DNA of 63,674 bases, filler included, from Perkinsus olseni (lineage: Eukaryota): NCBI GenBank assembly GCA_013115125.1. It is 25 parts of 25 records of this genome, joined end to end, with 100 filler letters (N's around TTAATTAATTAA, not from the genome) between each part and the next. Parts side by side here need not be neighbours in the genome. Positions count along the whole stretch, not along the records: positions 46,219 to 48,633 come from JABANN010001576.1; 24 more parts are not named here. One strand, written 5' to 3'. Made by a program: the position numbers and the translations under genes. Numbering within the stretch: the stretch's first letter is position 1; the number at the start of each line of letters is the position of its first letter. This document shows positions 9,207-63,674 of the stretch, in pieces. Under the pieces are notes generated by a model, which was given only the letters and a program-made list of their open reading frames with translations, made no database searches and had not been told where the DNA came from.

Positions 9207-10316
9207 TTAACAAGAGCAAGGCTTACCCGAGCCAAAACAAACAGACGGCTTCTCCCAATATTTGCAATAGGAGCCCGGTAATCCAGCTTCGCATTCAGCA
9301 TCACACCTGGCAATGGACTTAGTCGTGGTAGTGCTCACAGGCTTGCCGGAGCAGGAGCAAGGGATATTGCTCCCGAAACAAGTAGGCTCATCCATCCAGT
9401 ATTTGCAATACGAACCAGCATATGACTGAGCGCAAATGTTATCGGCTTGAGTACAGTCGCCCTTTTGCGTCGGCGTTGCCTTGGTTGATGCTAGCGTCGT
9501 ACTCGCTGGCTCGGTAGAGGCAGCCCTCGTGCGTGGTGCGACGGAGGTCGAGCTAGCATAATTTGTAGTGAGAGCAACAGTAGTGCTGGTAGCGCGAGTA
9601 GACTCCGTAGTGGAAGCAACAGTGGTGCTGGTAGTACTCGTAGTGCTGCTAGTACTGGTAGACTCCGTAGTGGGAGCAACAGTGGTGCTGCTGATACTGG
9701 TAGACTCCGTAGTGGGGGCAACAGTGGTGCTGCTGGTAGACTCAGTAGTGGAAGCAACAGTCGTGCTGGTAGACTCAGTAGTGGAAGCAACAGTCGTGCT
9801 GGTAGACTCAGTAGTGGGAGCAACAGTCGTGCTGGTAGACTCACTAGTGGGAGCAACAGTAGTGCTGGTAGACTCAGTAGTGGAAGCAACAATAGTGCTG
9901 GTAGTGCTGGTAGACTCAGTAGTGGGAGCAACAGTAGTTGTGGTAGTGGTAGTGGACTCAGTAGTGGGAGCAACAGTAGTTGTGGTAGTGGTGGTACTAG
10001 GAGCGGAGGTAGTAGTAGAAAGAGGATCCGTGCCTGTCGGATTTGGTGGCATCTCATTGGGTCCATAACCGGTGCACTTGTACAAATCGGGGTTACACTT
10101 GGTCATCGCAATGCAGCTCAAACACTTCTCAGTGGCCGGACCAGCGATGCAACTCATCATACAGACGTCACGTCCGCACTGAACCGACTGTCCGAAGCAG
10201 GTGGAGCAAGAGTCGGATAAGCCTGACTTTTCAATACAGGCAGTGGTAGCCTTGGCGTCACCGAACGACTCGAGACCGCAGTAAGCTATGAAGTTACTGT
10301 AGGCCTGACCATAAGA
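9207..10316 (-). CDS. Mucin-like Thr/Ser-rich surface or secreted protein with a Cys-rich N-domain and two C-terminal GSYCKYW Cys domains (5' partial)
   Basis: The frame is open from the contig edge; TTVA(P/S)TTESTS repeats at about 9590-10000; two CxxxC..GSYCKYW..P.CFGS..PCSC modules. Confidence 0.8.
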   Translation of the reverse strand, partial: SYGQAYSNFIAYCGLESFGDAKATTACIEKSGLSDSCSTCFGQSVQCGRDVCMMSCIAGPATEKCLSCIAMTKCNPDLYKCTGYGPNEMPPNPTGTDPLSTTTSAPSTTTTTTTVAPTTESTTTTTTTVAPTTESTSTTSTIVASTTESTSTTVAPTSESTSTTVAPTTESTSTTVASTTESTSTTVASTTESTSSTTVAPTTESTSISSTTVAPTTESTSTSSTTSTTSTTVASTTESTRATSTTVALTTNYASSTSVAPRTRAASTEPASTTLASTKATPTQKGDCTQADNICAQSYAGSYCKYWMDEPTCFGSNIPCSCSGKPVSTTTTKSIARCDAECEAGLPGSYCKYWEKPSVCFGSGKPCSC

Positions 10317-10492: not shown

Positions 10493-11461
10493 TCAAGCAA
10501 AATGGGCCCGAACATACGCACTTCGATCTTCCAAGCCCTCTATAGCTTCGACACCCACAGGCGGTTCCACCATGTCCAGTGCATCCTCAATCTCTTCTTC
10601 ATCCTCGTCATCCAAGGCTTCCGGCTCGCCCATTGCGTGTTGAAAGTTGTGCAAGCAGAAGCACGCTAGCACAGCCTTGGCGCTCTTCGCTGCCGGTTTG
10701 AGACGGAGATTGCCATTACATATAGCCCACGATCTTTTCAACGAGCGAAACCTCCTTTCAATCGCAGATCGCACGCTTTTATGAGCTACATTGAAAGAGG
10801 CTTCAGCGGAACCAGGATCTGGGTCGTTGAATGGAGTGAAGAGATGACGCGACAAGCCGTATCCCGAGTCGCCACATATCCAGTATCCCTCCGGAAGAGC
10901 CCTTACACGCCGAGATAATAAGCTGGCATTATATACGCGCGAATCATGAGCAGAACCGGGGTTTGATGTGTTGACCGAGATCCACTTCTCATTAGCACCG
11001 AGGACGGCTTGCACATTCAAAGAAATATGCCTCTTAGAGTCCACAAAGTCTGCACGCTCTGCTAGCGGCACTACGTCTTTCAAAAGCACGTGCGTACCAT
11101 CTATCAGACCAATACAACCCGGTAGCCGCGGATCCACTTCCTCTAGTCCTCTGCAAATCGCCTCGTCGCAGGGGAATCGAATAAAGAAATTCCGACGCAC
11201 AACGATAGCATCTACAACTTCAGCTACGCTTCGACTGACGTACTCCTGCGAACAGTTCAACATATCCCCACTGGCCAACTGGAAGCACCCATTTGCTAAG
11301 TAGCGCAATGCGACCAGCAACTTTGTCATAACATGATGATGTTTGCCATGATCTTTCAGGTCCAGGATACCCAACAGGGTTCGAAGCGAACCTTTAGAGA
11401 AGCGATAGCGGCGGCGCAAGTCGTCGTCTGATATATCATTGATGGGGTCCTCGAGAGGCAT
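10493..11461 (-). mobile_element. PIF/Harbinger DDE transposase (HARBI1-like)
   Basis: RYRFSK, LVALRYLANG, GLIDGTHV, SLNVQAV, PGSAHDSRV, GDSGY, TPF, FNVAH..R..IERRF..LK..W, CLHNF. Confidence 0.93.
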
Positions 11462-11849
11462 GGACGTAACTATATACTGAGTGAATGCGTGTACATATAC
11501 ATAATATATACAATAATATAATAGATAATATTATAGTATCATAACATTATTATGTGAATATAAGAATGATATCTGACTACACTATTCTACTGTAAGACTA
11601 ACACAGTTAGTCGCCAAAGACTAAACAGTATTATACTATCAGACTGTTACACTACCATACTGTTACGCGATATGCCCAAAGCCACCCATTGACTATAACT
11701 GTACAACGCAACCTCCTCATTTGGCTCAAACACTTTTCTGAGTTACCAATAACTAACTAGTAAAATGACACGGGCCCGGTCTCTCCAGCCTATCTCAGTC
11801 ATCACTTTAGAATCAACTAATAGTCTCAGAGACTATTCCGGAGAAGAGA

Positions 11850-39123: not shown

Positions 39124-39395
39124 TCATTGAATATTTAGTGCCTTCAAACGGTGGACAACTTCCTGCATTGAGGGACGACTATCTGGTACATGCTCCCAAC
39201 ACTGTGTCATAATATTAATCAAGTCTTTGTGTATCATAGTATCTCCATCTCCATGATCATCATAAGGATATCTGCTTAGATCAGGCCTTCTACCCCTAGT
39301 AACTGCCAATACTATCTTCATTGCTTCTAGGCCAGTCTCTTCATAAGGTATAGCCCGACATAATGTTTCATACATAACAATACCATAACTATATA
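39124..39395 (-). pseudogene. Protein kinase (TKL-like) C-terminal subdomains IX-XI, cut by a Tc1-like insertion
   Basis: VYSYGIVMYETLCRAIPY...GRRPDL...CWEHVPDSRPSMQEV. Confidence 0.8.
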
Positions 39396-39601
39396 CAGTG
39401 CGAACCAAACCGTTATGCAAATCACCATTTTTGAGGTAACTTGCTCAATAAGAAGAGTTTATCAATGATCTTTGAAAGGTGTACTGGTAATGAGAGTGAA
39501 AATCGATTGACACCGTTTCAGAACCGTTTCATCATCCATTGTTATATTATGGGCGCGCGAAAATTTCCGGACCCTTCCGACCGACCCAAACCGTTATGCA
39601 A
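39396..39601 (+). mobile_element. Tc1-like terminal repeat with inner and outer direct repeats
   Basis: TA|CAGTG terminus; CCAAACCGTTATGCAA at 39405 and 39586; near-identical copy at 48734-48864. Confidence 0.8.
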
Positions 39602-46048: not shown

Positions 46049-46960
46049 CTAGCAACACTCGCAGCTGAGCTGCTAGAAGTGTAACACAAGATCCGGAGAT
46101 ATTGGGCTGCGATGGAGANNNNNNNNNNNNNNNNNNNNNNNNNNNNNNNNNNNNNNNNNNNNTTAATTAATTAANNNNNNNNNNNNNNNNNNNNNNNNNN
46201 NNNNNNNNNNNNNNNNNNAATGCGAAGAAGACAGCCGTAAGTTGCGTCACAAAGCCCCGACTGCGGAGATCAACAGCACAGGCTAGGGTGGCGCTCAGCT
46301 CGCTGCAGAGGCAAGGCCGCTCAGCCGTGGCATTGCTCCGATCGCTTCAACGTGGGGATGATAATCGTCAGAAGCGTCGGGAAGAGCAGGGAGGACTTAC
46401 GAAAGAGAAATCGGTTGGTCGAGTCCTCGACATATCCGCAAGAATGCAAATGGTGGGAAGATAAAACTACACAGCAACAACAGGTCAAAAAGAAAACTTG
46501 GTATTGTTCGTAGGGTCCACGGTATGGGAGAGGGTCCTCTCCCATACCACTCCTTTCGGAAACTATAACACAACATACCTAGCAGCTCGTTGTTCGGGAA
46601 TAATTACAATGATAGTAATAACAAGGACGACGAGGACGACTTCGCTATAATACGCTGCCCCAATCCGTATCTTTCATCATGAGGTCGACCTATGAGGACC
46701 CATAGTGAGCAACGCTGAAAAGATACCTCCATTCGGGATGGGTGCTGGGAGACGGGTACTATTACAAAAAGGAAGATGAGAGGCGACGTGCCGGTCCGAC
46801 GGCAAAGCACGGAACTCGGAATGACGAGTGTTGACACTCAAAAGGGTATAACAGCGTAGACCTTATTAAAAGCCGCGTCGCTCCGCCGACAGAAAAATAC
46901 ACGACTGGATCGACTAGCATGATCGTAGCGGAGCGAGGCAGGGATTGTTATACCATTATG

Positions 46961-48533
46961 CTACACAGCTCGAGAGGTTATGGTGACATCATCATCGTCG
47001 TCACGAGAATCCGGAGGGGCTCTGCTCTCCCCTTCCAAGTCCTCCTCTTCCGGATCGTCGGGGTCCAACGGAGATCGGCACAGCGGACAAGACATCTTAC
47101 CAACCTGAAGGTAGCCGTCATGATTCACGAAAAAGTTGGTATTAGAATGAGGGGCACATATACCAGTGAATGAGATGATTCGCTGTGAATTACCTTAGCC
47201 CAATTCGCCAAACATTTGTGATGGAAGTAATGCTGGCAAGGGGTTTCGCGTATGAGATCAGCACTCGCCGATGATGGGGTCTCGCTAAACCTAACATCGA
47301 CGCGTGATAGGATTGAACCCGGGGCCATAAGCATGTAGAACCACGGACTTAACGGCTAGACCAGAGCTTCCCGCATTACTCGGTTAAGCAGACACTGCAC
47401 TCCTCAGCGACCTTCGACGCTTCTTCTGACGATACAATACGTAGGGCCGATATCACCTAAAGCAACATCAGCCTTCAATACAACACAAACCTCTTTGCTA
47501 AGGAACCTGGTATCTTTCGACCCCATGGAAGGCTCGAGTGACGACGTTGTGCTATACGCCTTTCGTCAGGATGAGAATACTACTGCCCCATCCATGCGCC
47601 AGTACGACCCCTGCGCTCACCCGATCCACTTTCTGTTGCCGCTCCTTAGCCACCCTTATATGACCTCTCCTGATGGCCAGCATGAGGATGCCTATCAGAA
47701 TCGGAGGGCCCAGTAGCGTGAGCACCCATGCTACTATCAATAAGACGACAATCTGAAAACCAACAACCACTGGTGATGACTAGTTGCAACCTGACAAGAA
47801 TCTCAACATACGGGGATGGGGAAGACAGTCGGGTGTACCCATTCGAGCTAGAAGAAGCGCGCGAGAGCGCACTGATGATGATGCTTCAATGAGGAGCGCT
47901 TTTAGGACAGATTCACGCAAGTTAATTATATCAATGGTCGAGATGTCCGAGCCAGGAATCGAACCGGGGACCTGTAGACCACTCACCGCCGTGGATACAG
48001 CAAAGAGCTTCGGCGCCGTCGAACTGCATGTATCAGAAGATGCCAACCAGACCACTCCAATGATCGGCCAAGCGAAGCAGAAAGCTGAAATAACTCTGAT
48101 GATAATTACCGCGCGCCCTTTAATTCCTCAACCTCATCAGGCATGTATTACCAGTGAAGATAGCATCGTGTATTTTGACTCGGAGGGGCTTCTCGGGGTC
48201 GGTGGATGGATTATAGCAAAGCAACACCCGGGTAACGATAGATTTCAAAATGGCGTAAACAACACCGCCGAAATAAACGAGTAAAAACCTACACAAATCA
48301 TCGCTTCGCTCCGCTGTAACACTGACCACAACACTCACGTTCTTAACGGCCGATCACAAACCGTGTCGTTCTTCTCAACTACAAATATCGCCCACACGGT
48401 CACACCTACACCAAGAAGAGCGTAGAAGAATTATCCTCTCACAGTTGATAAATATGAGAACGACGCGGGCACTAGGGTTGCGAGAAGCGAAGTTAGATAC
48501 TACAACTTGCGGAATCAGGCTGGCAAAAGACAT
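46961..48533 (-). CDS. Membrane-anchored RING-H2 E3 ubiquitin ligase, multi-exon; start uncertain
   Basis: CDRPLR, WPIIGVVW..SDTC...APKLF, ECSVCLTEF...TPCQHYFHHKCLANW...SCPLCR, assembled through GT-AG introns. Confidence 0.85.
47303..47370 (-). pseudogene. Decayed tRNA-like sequence inside the 89-nt intron (47379-47291)
   Basis: A-box-like TGGTCTAGCCG and B-box GGTTCAATCC at tRNA spacing. Confidence 0.55.
47944..47978 (-). pseudogene. tRNA 3'-half fragment at the 5' end of intron 47986-47753
   Basis: TCTACAGGTC CCCGG TTCGATT CCTGG CTCGGACA: variable loop, T-arm and acceptor strand. Confidence 0.65.
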
Positions 48534-48563
48534 CCGGAACTATGCGCGCATTTCCCCAGCAGG

Positions 48564-48633
48564 GGCTGGATGGCGTAATAGAAGGAACCCAGCGCCGACA
48601 AGCTTGAGGTCGGGGGTTCAATTCCCGCTCATT
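48564..48633 (+). pseudogene. Decayed near-full-length tRNA-like sequence
   Basis: TGGCGTAATAG A-box; AGGTC GGGGG TTCAATT CCCGC T-arm. Confidence 0.6.
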
Positions 48634-48733
48634 NNNNNNNNNNNNNNNNNNNNNNNNNNNNNNNNNNNNNNNNNNNNTTAATTAATTAANNNNNNNNNNN
48701 NNNNNNNNNNNNNNNNNNNNNNNNNNNNNNNNN

Positions 48734-48864
48734 CGGTTCTGAAACGGTGTCAATCGATTTTCACTCTCATTATCAGTACACCTTTCAAAGATCATTGATA
48801 AACTCTCCTTATTGAGCAAGTTACCTCAAAAAAGGTGATTTGCATAACGGTTTGGTTCGCACTG
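48734..48864 (-). mobile_element. Second copy of the Tc1-like terminus (CACTG|TA)
   Basis: Reverse complement of 39396-39526 with a few substitutions. Confidence 0.85.
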
Positions 48865-48868
48865 TAGG

Positions 48869-49167: not shown

Positions 49168-50133
49168 GGGTGTACCGCGATTCGTCCATGATCGATTGGT
49201 CCACTGCAGCTTCGATCCAAGATTGTTTCGTACAAATTTTGGTTCATTCATGATCTTTTCGTACATCGAAAAGGTGTATGTTTCGGTCACGAGTTTTTCA
49301 TCCATAACCGGTTTCGTACACGATTATTTCGTCCATGGGCGGTTAATCCAAAGATATGCTCATTTTGATCTATTCAACCACGATCTTTTCGGAAAAAATT
49401 CATTCGTCCAATAGTGGTTCGTACATATGAAACTGACGACACGCAAATGTTTATCGGAGGAAATGAACCCACGATTTCGGGAATACGAGCATGAGCTGCT
49501 AACCTACTCACCTGTAAGACTACTGAATTCCGACAAAGTACCGCCCATGCGATACCCAACCTATTCAACTTGGCTCCATTCATGTTTGGAGCCTCTAGGC
49601 ACTGGGATCACCACAGAGACAACCTGAATCAGGTTACCTGATGTGGGGGTGCTAGATCGTCACCACTGGTGACTCACCAGGAGAGGCGGCGGTGAGATTC
49701 TTAGGTCGTAGTAGGTGATGGTAATAGCGGAATTGGTAGAGCTCCCGGCTTGCATGACGATGGTCCCAGGTTCGAATCTGGGTAGGGGCAGACGACATGG
49801 GTGGCACTGGTGGAGCCGCCAGCGCGCTACTTTTAGACATATGTGACGCCGCGGCGTCACATATGTCTAAAAGTAGCGTGGACGAAACTCATGTGTACGA
49901 AAGGCTTGTACGAAAAGCCCTGGACGAAAGAAGCGGAGTTAGAGCATGATTGGATGAAACGGCGTGGATGAAAGAATCATGTACGTAAGACCCGTGGACG
50001 GAAGATGTGTGTATGAAAAAGGATGGACAAAAGTAACATGGACGAAACAAGCAGGCTGAACCCTACCATGGACGAAGCAATCGTGGACGAAACCTACAAT
50101 GTATGAAACAGCGATGTATGAATGGAAGTTCCC
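49168..50133. mobile_element. Foldback-like element: inverted arms made of TTCGT(C/A)CA modules
   Basis: Motif repeated on + at about 49180-49425 and on - at about 49879-50125, with alignable blocks; no TSD found. Confidence 0.55.
49718..49789 (+). pseudogene. Decayed tRNA-like sequence (possible TGC anticodon)
   Basis: TAGCGGAATTGGTAGAGC...CTTGCAT...GGTCCCAGGTTCGAATCTGGG; stems poorly paired. Confidence 0.6.
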
Positions 50134-58666: not shown

Positions 58667-58766
58667 NNNNNNNNNNNNNNNNNNNNNNNNNNNNNNNNNN
58701 NNNNNNNNNNTTAATTAATTAANNNNNNNNNNNNNNNNNNNNNNNNNNNNNNNNNNNNNNNNNNNN

Positions 58767-58836
58767 GTGTGTAGCTCAGTGGTAGAGCGGCTGACTGCAG
58801 ATCAGCAGGTCCTCGGTTCAAATCCGGGCGCGCCCT
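58767..58836 (+). tRNA. tRNA-Cys(GCA), first 2 nt lost in the gap
   Basis: Cloverleaf; anticodon arm GCTGA-CTGCAGA-TCAGC; GGTTCAAATCC; U discriminator. Confidence 0.93.
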
Positions 58837-58945
58837 TACTTTAATCATGGAGCGCTGTCACAGAGGGATGGGTGTGGGCCACATGGAAGTCCCAGCACAG
58901 TTCAGCAGGTCCCTATTTCGAGTTGGATAGCGATGTTCGCTAGAA

Positions 58946-59018
58946 GCCCTGCTGGCCCAATGGATAAGGCGCCACCCTCCTAAGGTGGAGTTTCCGAGTT
59001 GGATCCTCGGGTAGGGTA
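58946..59018 (+). tRNA. tRNA-Arg(CCT) with an atypical T-loop
   Basis: GCCCTGC/GTAGGGT acceptor; CCACC-CTCCTAA-GGTGG; CCGAG-TTGGATC-CTCGG. Confidence 0.85.
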
Positions 59019-59396: not shown

Positions 59397-60995
59397 TCAA
59401 GCTCCTTCATTCATATTGAAACGAGGCGTGGTGGTGCTCCTATCAGCGATCGGCGTATGCGGTACCACTCCAGAGGACACACAGCCCACAACGCGCTCGT
59501 GGAAGGCCCACGGTTCTTCGTAGGACGTCTAAAAACACCCAGTGAATTTCCCGGCGCTCATGCATGATAAGCAAAATTCCAGGCCGAATCTCACCTGTAT
59601 TGGAGTGACGAAATCGCTTCTATCTTCCGTGCCGCCCAGGTTGCTATAACGTACATAAAGTATGAAACCTATAGTGACTCCGACGACTCCAACGAGAGAG
59701 TAGGGGGAGAAGCTCTCAGCGTACTCCTCGCCCATGATGAAGGAGCTCGTGTACAGCAGACTCGACACGGGCAACTTGACGGCATAGGCTAGGGAGCACA
59801 TGATGGCTCCGACTTGTAGCGCCGAACCGTAGCGAGTTACTGCCACTCCCAGCACGTTGAAGACGAGGTTAACAACACAGTAGGTGAGAAGCAGCAGTCC
59901 GGCGGGTCCGATTGAGAAGCTGAAGGCGTTGAGAAAATTGAAAACCACCGATTTCGGTGAGAGGGGCACGCCTCCAGGCTGGCCAGAAAGGTACGGCACA
60001 CACTGCAGGAATCCGAGACCGAAGGAGATGATCGTCTGGTAGGCGGCGACGTAGGCCGTCATCGTCCATACCCCCACAGCGTAGTTGTTGAAACCGGACT
60101 CCTTATACACATTTGATAGGGCCATGGGGATGTTGGAGAGAAAGTACCTGCCCGAATCAAGCTGGGTGGAACGTGTTTGGCATGAGAAACTCACAGACAA
60201 ACCGACAGGCAGCTGCAGTTGGCGATCGAGGCTCCGCTGAGGGAGGGGATGACGATGATGCACGCACTAGCGAAGACGATAAACGCCGCGCCCTACAATA
60301 AAAGCGCACTCCCGGACGCCTCGAAGAAGACACTTACAATGGACTTTATGTTATATGTCGTGCCGAGCACGAGACTGCTGCAAATCATAGTCACCGGAAT
60401 CAGCGTCTGATTGAGGACAGTTTGGAATTGGCCCGGGGTTGAGGGTCCCCCTATGCTGCTGAAGAGGGTCCCAAGGCCGTCCAGGAGGCCCATGATAGCG
60501 AACTTGTACCTTGGCCATGAATACAACGAAGAAAGCCCGACCGAGCGCTGCGCTTACTGCGGAGGAAAGGTGTCTTCTCGCTGCTTTTGGTTCTTTCTTT
60601 CGCTCCTCAGGACCATCGCCGGCACGGCAGTCATGACCATGTAGCCCACGTTACAGAATTGATCGACGAAAAAGGCGTAACTGTTACGGACGGCCACGAG
60701 TGCGCGGACACTGGGTGAGGAGTGGAGGGGCTTCTTACTCTTGCCCGTAGACGTTCTGAACTATTTTACAAGAGACATCATTGATGCTGCCCGCAATGCA
60801 GAGCAGGAACGCGAGCAGTATGAGGACGTTGCGAGGTTGGCAGAGGAACTCACTGCAGGTTGGTTGAGAAGATGTAGCCTCCTATGAACAGTGAGTAATC
60901 CAAAGGTCCCGAGTTCGATCCCCACAGCCTACTTCTTGTGGCAGTAGAGGTATCTCCAGTGGAGGTGGGACTCTAGTCTCCTTTTCGGAGCCCAT
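59397..60995 (-). CDS. CRT-like (chloroquine-resistance-transporter family) membrane protein, multi-exon
   Basis: YAFFVDQ, YKFAIMGLLDGLG...STPGQFQTVLNQTLIPVTMICS..LG, SNIPMALSNVYKE, VAAYQ, VNLVFNV...VTRYGSA. Confidence 0.85.
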
Positions 60996-63451: not shown

Positions 63452-63674
63452 GAATGCGAAGCCCCAAAACTGTCCAACTTTACCCAGCGCAGTACCAATG
63501 GCTATACCAACAAACCTGAAGGAAAAAGGTGTCATCCGAGGATTGAACCGGGGACCTAACGCTACCCTAAGCTCGTCCGTACAATGCCATCCATCATACT
63601 ATCCACATCGGGATCGAAGAAGTACTTGAGGGCTTGCGCGAGGAGAAGGGCCTCCAAGGGCATGGCCACCCCCG
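63452..63674 (-). pseudogene. ABCB/MDR-type transporter TM fragment (exons 63674-63566 and 63515-63452) disrupted by the LINE
   Basis: GVAMPLEALLLAQALKYFFDPDVDSMMDGIVRTSLG/FVGIAIGTALGKVGQFWGF, joined by a 50-nt GT-AG intron. Confidence 0.6.

Follow-up and report, generated by a model that had tools for sequence, protein, structure and literature searches.

Introns of a Perkinsus olseni gene coding for a DHHC domain and a RING-H2 finger carry short stretches that resemble truncated, decayed transfer RNA (tRNA) genes. We analysed a window of 63,674 bases, made up of 25 P. olseni contigs of 2.4-2.5 kb with N spacers between them, in which the gene and its tRNA-like pieces occupy the contig at 46219-48633. 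A frame for ribosomal protein L8 in the window shows 100% identity to a protein listed by NCBI under P. olseni, the species name that the RING and CRT-like proteins bear as well. Two of the three pieces in this gene (47944-47977 and 48586-48629), as well as a nearly full-length copy elsewhere in the window (49724-49789), score as tRNA-derived beyond chance, whereas the third piece of the gene, a unit in an 89-nt intron, is weak; the tRNA derivation put forward in a first-pass annotation of this DNA thus stands for the former and is doubtful for the latter. All statistics rest on about 61 kb of sequence, and because the short contigs of a fragmented assembly are repeat-rich, densities given here overstate genome-wide densities.

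The RING-H2 part of the gene lies on the minus strand and comprises seven exons (46961-48405, with the stop codon at 46961-46963). Its last exon shows 100% identity to P0121, an annotated protein of 280 aa whose source is a contig of 2,415 nt and in which zf-RING_2 scores 40.8 bits against a cut-off of 27.3, and the minus-strand RING-H2 gene that had been predicted from the sequence therefore exists. In an allele, P0123 (520 aa), a DHHC domain (116.8 bits) precedes the RING part; the RING stretch makes up the 3' part of a DHHC+RING gene, and the gene is real. RNA contigs of three runs (X7, X8 and X9) bridge six GT-AG introns on the minus strand. Two of these hold tRNA-like pieces: 47753-47986, where the RNA contigs skip exactly 234 nt (CT..AC ends on the plus strand), and 47291-47379, where they skip 89 nt. 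The borders of both introns had been placed exactly by the first-pass annotation. The other four are found at 47105-47193 (89 nt), 47457-47620 (164 nt), 48085-48151 (67 nt) and 48289-48338 (50 nt). At 48406 the RNA has a loose end, beyond which it consists of letters absent from the contig, and these translate into the last residues of the upstream (DHHC) exon of P0123. The stretch 48406-48633 is therefore the 3' part of a seventh intron on the same strand, at least 228 nt long and running off the contig end, and all three tRNA-like pieces of the contig therefore lie in introns of one DHHC+RING gene. Parts of the contig that RNA leaves uncovered, and runs with only small shares of its sequence words, were given no evidential weight.

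Sequencing depth in a DNA run (X1) is uneven along this contig: its two ends (46219-46291 and 48294-48633) lie at 516-544 and its middle (46292-48293; 2,002 nt, most of the RING gene) at 92.6, and a 72-nt X1 contig of depth 516 bridges the two ends with 12 other letters. It seems that a segment of the DHHC gene is repeated and that roughly one copy in six includes the RING part. A 72-nt stretch further downstream (46397-46468) is covered at high depth by RNA of X7, X8 and X9 that has loose ends to either side; it resembles an exon of a different gene, the adjacent exons of which are not contained in this contig.

As a yardstick for tRNA derivation, prokaryotic loci were fetched by a generic T-loop pattern, and 88 distinct tRNAs were extracted from them with ARAGORN. 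Controls were second-order Markov shuffles of the window contigs (n = 100 for profile hits, n = 150 for a combined test described below). A profile of 66 prokaryotic class-I tRNAs, run over the window with nhmmer and all filters off, gave eight top matches: a tRNA-Cys gene (43.3 bits), 49724-49789 (30.2 bits), 48586-48629 (17.9 bits), a tRNA-Arg gene (16.0 bits), 47944-47977 (12.1 bits), 60896-60926 (8.2 bits), and 63540-63562 and 47303-47336 (4.7 bits each), with all remaining matches in the window at or below 4.0 bits. Shuffled windows held on average no match at 12.1 bits or more, 0.13 at 8.2 bits or more and 1.09 at 4.7 bits or more. Local alignment of each RING intron with 90 tRNAs, using 60 shuffles each, returned scores of 33 for the 234-nt intron and 36 for the seventh intron, neither of which was equalled in any of the 60 shuffles. 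The 89-nt intron at 47291-47379 scored 23 (p = 0.22), and no significant tRNA-like signal was seen in the four other introns (p = 0.10 for the 164-nt, 0.23 for the 50-nt, 0.55 for the 67-nt and 0.88 for the other 89-nt intron).

The combined test asked for an nhmmer match of at least 4.7 bits inside a same-strand ARAGORN match at the 80% threshold. Five places in the window pass it (the tRNA-Arg gene, 49724, 47944, 60896 and 47303), against a shuffle mean of 0.15 and maximum of 1; ARAGORN at this threshold reports 46-47 'tRNAs' in the window, against a mean of 38.4 in shuffles. A covariance model (R1) was built from 57 of the yardstick tRNAs and the tRNA-Arg of the window and run with filters off. 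The two tRNA genes scored 55.7 and 53.9 bits, followed by 48024-47942 (16.6 bits), 49724-49783 (12.7 bits) and 48607-48628 (11.5 bits), and none of the pieces at 47303, 60896 and 63540 was reported at E <= 10. Taken as a group, the pieces exceed the shuffled controls, and the lack of enrichment over such controls that the first-pass annotation had named as a refutation was therefore not seen.

More stringent tools leave the pieces uncalled. The tRNA model of Rfam at E <= 10 gave no tRNA match to any piece in six stretches tested (some of about 100 nt), nor over 46800-48700 or the whole window; at the pieces, Rfam returned only T-loop matches of 11-13 nt to its transfer-messenger RNA (tmRNA) model. 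Other low-score Rfam matches (small nucleolar RNA, CRISPR, MAT2A and others) were set aside as chance. With ARAGORN at default settings and Rfam at its gathering score, only 58764-58837 and 58946-59018 are called in the window, and none of the pieces is a working or intact tRNA gene. Searching with a loose T-arm pattern by itself gave 6 matches where 2.95 are expected (p = 0.07, not significant), and a motif drawn from the pieces themselves gave 8 against 0.25 expected, a post hoc count that carries little weight.

The piece in the 234-nt intron (47944-47977, minus strand) corresponds to the 3' half of a tRNA, comprising the variable loop, the T-arm, the 3' acceptor strand and the discriminator base. 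It starts 9 nt past the donor hexamer, has no 5' half within the intron and so no A-box, and lacks CCA. Just such a 3' half had been noticed behind this donor, and its profile score, reached in none of the 100 shuffles, together with the local alignment, which beats 60 of 60, bears the observation out. Within it, 47955-47965 matches the T-arm columns of an Rfam model exactly over 11 nt, giving a B-box consensus without an intact tRNA. In the X1 data, the 26 nt at 47944-47969 recur mismatch-free on another contig of 14 kb, and a 30-nt version (27/30, three differences) lies 686 nt from this copy on the same contig. Both copies stop exactly at the discriminator position, the 3' end of the tRNA, and therefore only the tRNA part is common to them, not a longer mobile element; the identity of the 26-nt copy takes in the acceptor strand as well as the B-box. 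The exact 26-mer has no match in JGI metagenomes, and a 22-mer with one free base finds six JGI loci, one of which ARAGORN calls as a tRNA (tRNA-Ile) and five of which it does not.

Two further proposals were rejected. The R1 match at 48024-47942 covers the full model (16.6 bits, E = 0.017) and would describe a tRNA spanning exon and intron. Its alignment takes 38 nt of the coding exon for the 5' half, and the sole gain from doing so is a 7-bp acceptor pairing with one bulge; because such a pairing arises in 15% of shuffles and 5% of real-sequence substitutes, the match was not accepted as evidence of a tRNA-derived exon. A link to a spliced-leader RNA gene was also dropped, as the spliced-leader donor given for P. 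marinus in the relevant passage of PMC3101222 is 'Gguag', not the hexamer seen here.

In the seventh intron, the piece at 48586-48629 lies on the plus strand, antisense to the gene, covers only profile positions 24-67 and is cut by the contig end. The antisense tRNA-like unit reported at this end is thus borne out both by the profile and by the local alignment of its intron, which again exceeds all 60 shuffles. R1 places its 11.5 bits over the T-arm (48607-48628), and 48614-48626 is an exact 13-nt match to the T-arm columns of an Rfam model, here too a B-box consensus without an intact tRNA. The piece falls in the stretch that has about 5.6 times the X1 depth of the gene body.

Outside the gene, 49724-49789 (plus strand) is a nearly full-length decayed tRNA that ARAGORN reports at the 90% threshold only and for which Rfam gives nothing. 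Judged from these scores, 47944, 48586 and 49724 are tRNA-derived beyond chance. A perfect 54-nt palindrome (49825-49878) lies 36 nt past the decayed tRNA and is followed by loosely repeated short words.

The 89-nt intron at 47291-47379 was described as largely filled by a decayed full-length tRNA-like unit. Such a unit (47299-47376, minus strand) is reported by ARAGORN at the 80% threshold only and passes the combined test, the one test that it passes; on the other side stand an nhmmer score confined to 47303-47336, whose 4.7 bits are chance level when taken by themselves, the local alignment value above, the silence of R1 at E <= 10 and an empty Rfam search of 101 nt. An A-box-like word at about the right spacing was seen in the 47303 piece by eye and is unscored. 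The 47303 piece may derive from a tRNA, as may the one at 63540, but the case is weak for both.

A second gene, coding for a protein like the chloroquine resistance transporter (CRT-like), was said to hold a 50-nt intron made largely of a tRNA variable loop and T-arm. Its intron measures 51 nt (60882-60932, minus strand) and is supported by annotation: it contains an in-frame stop, and the annotated protein P0124 (CRT-like, 161 bits) continues over the junction without a break. The CRT-like protein P0126 of P. chesapeaki is colinear across it, though as a protein it is uninformative on the presence of the intron. The T-arm-like piece inside (60896-60926, plus strand) is antisense to the gene and passes the combined test, but its 8.2 bits are weak and Rfam is silent; it is probably, though weakly, tRNA-derived by these scores. 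An apparent target-site duplication at the intron borders, seen by eye as an 8-mer with one mismatch and one base out of register, was taken as chance.

The third case had been assigned to an ABCB gene, and this assignment is not confirmed. A Pfam scan covered 216 frames: 72 of the window's 234 frames of at least 75 aa, chosen by hand among the 150 longest, and, for 12 of the 25 contigs, 144 of the 220 frames measuring 48-87 aa. None of them gave an ABC-transporter domain, and searches for nucleotide-binding motifs came back empty; the contig encodes a reverse transcriptase. The segment in question is a 50-nt GT..AG stretch (63516-63565, minus strand) in the reverse-transcriptase reading frame (RVT_1, 75.4 bits). 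Removing it in silico joins two reverse-transcriptase frames, and the relatives P0155 and P0132 give no clean alignment across it, the window copy being about nine residues shorter there. It holds the T-arm-like piece 63540-63562, with its nhmmer score of 4.7 bits only, followed by a run of five T. The fifth B-box match (63548, minus) falls in this contig, which encodes RVT_1 and RNase H. If 63516-63565 is an intron, it would be an unusual one, standing in a retroelement gene. Two other 'GTTCGATC' matches (35616, plus; 36325, minus) obtain no score at all in the tRNA profile and are unsupported as tRNA-derived pieces.

As had been noted, the fragments differ from one another, no pair being found at E < 1 in a short-word self-BLAST; the longest words in common measure 13 nt (between 47944 and 63540) and 11 nt (between 63540 and 47303). 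They also occur in both orientations, three sense and two antisense to the host reading frames. That the B-box appears best conserved is what recognition bias leads one to expect, since the T-loop is common to all tRNAs. No piece has CCA after the discriminator position, which speaks against an origin from the complementary DNA (cDNA) of a mature tRNA. Among the 14 introns mapped in the window (1,300 nt in total, median length about 64 nt), the introns with secure pieces, of 234 nt and at least 228 nt, rank among the three longest; these pieces can therefore be accounted for by insertion into introns already present, without the birth of an intron.

The run of T past one piece, as in a gene copy, the absence of CCA, the mixed orientation and the long host introns lead us to read the pieces as copies of tRNA genes made at the DNA level. 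We think it probable that they are truncated, decayed gene copies that landed in existing introns and are decaying in neutral intron DNA; in this account we infer neutrality, a DNA-level origin and insertion into pre-existing introns. The Perkinsus lineage holds very many tRNA gene copies, pieces of which may enter non-coding sequence by copying or capture at the DNA level. As the genome is presumed gene-dense, with many introns, much of this non-coding sequence would be intronic, and the pieces would be spliced out with their intron, without function and without supplying its splice sites. In P. marinus, five tRNA types are present in 9, 46, 116, 23 and 349 near-intact copies, more than 500 in all, and Dada transposons insert into these genes, as given in the sections of Kojima and Jurka (2013, PMC3706591) that deal with them; a genome as rich in tRNA genes would for that reason be expected to shed tRNA fragments. 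Introns are found in 69.2% of 104 Perkinsus genes, according to the corresponding passage of PMC3101222.

Several findings weigh against neutral insertion. The pieces are clustered, with three in one 2.4-kb gene and two or three in about 59 kb elsewhere. Four of the five test-passing pieces fall within mapped introns, which total 1,300 nt, an enrichment with p = 0.007 if introns total about 5 kb; relative to sequence outside open reading frames, and for assumed intron totals of 5-10 kb, p ranges from 0.007 to 0.09 when pieces are counted and from 0.11 to 0.36 when loci are counted. Pieces nearly fill the 51-nt and 89-nt introns, and a third fills the 50-nt GT..AG segment; should these pieces really come from tRNAs, they cannot be put down to insertion into an intron that was already there. 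The word GTGAGT stands exactly 7 nt upstream of a variable-loop-like motif in two unrelated pieces, the word itself having a rate of 2.4e-4 per position; the pattern was found after the fact and has one instance, at 60891, on the strand opposite to the gene. The 26-nt identity of the 47944 copy, finally, implies a recent origin or homogenisation and is left unexplained, while not in itself arguing against neutrality.

Some of these observations also speak for an origin of the introns themselves from tRNA 3' halves, a form of the intron birth from tRNA or tRNA-cDNA insertions that the first-pass annotation had raised. Elements derived from such halves would insert into exons and be tolerated because they are spliced out, as introners are; the 50-51-nt and 89-nt introns would be insertions of this kind, and the 234-nt intron would go back, at its 5' end, to an earlier insertion and have lengthened afterwards. 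We regard this as unlikely, although a fair number of details fit it. T-arm-like pieces do occupy most of the 51-nt intron, the 89-nt intron and the 50-nt segment, whose removal restores the reverse-transcriptase frame; three pieces are 3' halves that start within about 13 nt of a GT; the series GTGAGT, 7 nt, AGGTCCC occurs twice; 47944 and 63540 have in common both the 13-mer and the same odd mismatch position in the T-stem; and Amoebophrya, a related parasite, is known to have introners (PMC7789003, in its passages on these elements). The short-intron cases on which the idea depends are, however, the statistically weak ones (4.7, 8.2 and 4.7 bits), with Rfam and R1 silent on all three, and similarity between the introns stays at 11-13 nt or less, whereas introner families are near-identical. 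In no case does the tRNA-like part supply either splice site, no in-register direct repeat was seen by eye at the intron borders, P0155 and P0132 give no clean alignment across the 50-nt segment, whose splicing is putative, and the GTGAGT series is subject to the reservations given above. Two family-based accounts were looked at directly: self-BLAST among the 14 introns revealed no near-identical intron copies, with common words of at most 13 nt, and in this small sample there is no common tRNA-unrelated body or tail of the kind a short interspersed nuclear element (SINE) would have, no pair in the window at E < 1, and nothing beyond the tRNA part in the X1 copies.

The exact agreement of 47944 and 48586 with the T-arm columns of Rfam, over 11 and 13 nt, could also be read as selection for the B-box. 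T-arm remnants would then be kept as binding sites for the transcription factor TFIIIC, without RNA polymerase III, and act on chromatin or on transcription of the host gene; that 47944 retains 11 nt in agreement with the T-loop consensus, has no 5' half, hence no A-box, and is identical over 26 nt to another genomic copy agrees with this. We consider it improbable all the same, for a T-loop in better state than the rest is expected from recognition bias, the T-stems are broken in the weak pieces, and an identity that spans the acceptor strand fits a young copy better than selection on a B-box. Mere chance resemblance, that is, ordinary intron sequence with T-loop-like words, is very improbable as a reading of the pieces. 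The non-significant excess of the loose T-arm pattern, the one or so 4.7-bit matches per shuffled window and the small margin of ARAGORN at 80% over its shuffles all point towards it, and it may well hold for the 89-nt intron, the 63540 piece and the two 'GTTCGATC' sites. Against it, none of 100 shuffles reached the scores of 47944, 48586 and 49724 and none of 60 the local alignments of the 234-nt and seventh introns, which excludes it for these pieces; the exact 26-nt copy elsewhere in the genome likewise excludes it, and the combined test found four non-gene matches where 0.15 are expected. Least credible to us, and barely so, is a role as a source of small RNA, in which the excised intron would be cut at a tRNA-like fold by tRNA-processing enzymes to leave a stable product. 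Only the sense orientation of 47944 and 47303, and a 3' half that ends at a discriminator-like base, speak for it, while two of the five pieces run antisense to the host gene, neither ARAGORN at default nor Rfam finds a cloverleaf, and the 3' half has no acceptor partner in its intron, its sole partner being the exonic one that chance provides in 5-15% of cases.

Neutral insertion of tRNA gene copies can be set beside several known systems. SINEs derived from tRNA occur in introns and bring tRNA-related sequence with a B-box in either orientation. The pieces described here differ in having no common body or tail and no family similarity, in that the X1 match ends at the tRNA 3' end, and in that one piece is a 3' half only, without an A-box. 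Extra-TFIIIC (ETC) sites of yeast resemble the pieces in matching the B-box while lacking both an intact tRNA and an A-box that could be used, but it is occupancy by TFIIIC that defines them, and most lie between genes. In nematodes, intact and functional tRNA genes are nested in introns of protein-coding genes. Sequence of tRNA type in spliceosomal introns is common to both cases, but the nematode genes are functional, whereas the present pieces fail tRNA finders at normal thresholds.

Introner elements are known from Micromonas and Aureococcus, and also from Amoebophrya, a relative of Perkinsus (PMC7789003, passages on introners, which contain nothing on tRNA). The likeness is that, in an aquatic protist, short sequences take up entire short introns of genes unrelated to one another. 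Introners, however, form near-identical families whose terminal repeats or target duplications build the splice sites; in the pieces at hand, common words are no longer than 13 nt, terminal repeats were not observed, and the tRNA-like part does not extend to the splice sites. Closest is the amplification of tRNA genes in P. marinus (PMC3706591), which resembles our case in partial tRNA similarity, in copies elsewhere in the genome, in assembly breaks and, on our side, in mixed orientation; it differs in that the sections of the paper at issue count near-intact genes and the transposons inside them, and no fragments in spliceosomal introns. No account of tRNA-derived intron content in Perkinsus was found in the open full-text literature, a search conducted mostly at abstract level and with subscription journals largely outside it. 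In all likelihood, the pieces are one more case of a type of genomic debris that is already known. As a small point for annotation, leftovers of tRNA genes litter Perkinsus genomes, where they interrupt assemblies, may give rise to spurious tRNA or SINE calls and lie within real introns. Should the pieces prove to be concentrated in short, species-specific introns, they would be a new and datable source of intron gain in alveolate parasites, beside the introners of Amoebophrya; and if the introns were indeed born from them, this would amount to a tRNA-derived route of intron gain in which each insertion is spliced as an intron of about 50 nt.

The two intact tRNA genes of the window, tRNA-Cys (GCA; 58764-58837) and tRNA-Arg (CCT; 58946-59018), lie on the plus strand within 58764-59018 and are called by ARAGORN and by Rfam (56.6 and 48.6 bits). 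The tRNA-Cys gene starts at a contig end, and two contigs in all have tRNA or tRNA-like sequence at one of their ends (58767 and 48633), which agrees with fragments shed by a genome crowded with tRNA genes. In the 108-nt spacer between the two genes, a T-arm-like word (58907-58922) has two mismatches to the post hoc motif and may be a third, decayed member of this tRNA cluster. Elsewhere, a 133-nt inverted match of 97.7% identity between 48734-48866 and 39394-39526 marks a dispersed repeat at a contig start. An intact-looking transposase frame of the PIF/Harbinger type occupies 10496-11530 (DDE_Tnp_4, 95.4 bits), and 9210-10316 encodes a long Thr/Ser-rich, mucin-like tandem repeat with flanking Cys-rich modules and no Pfam match.

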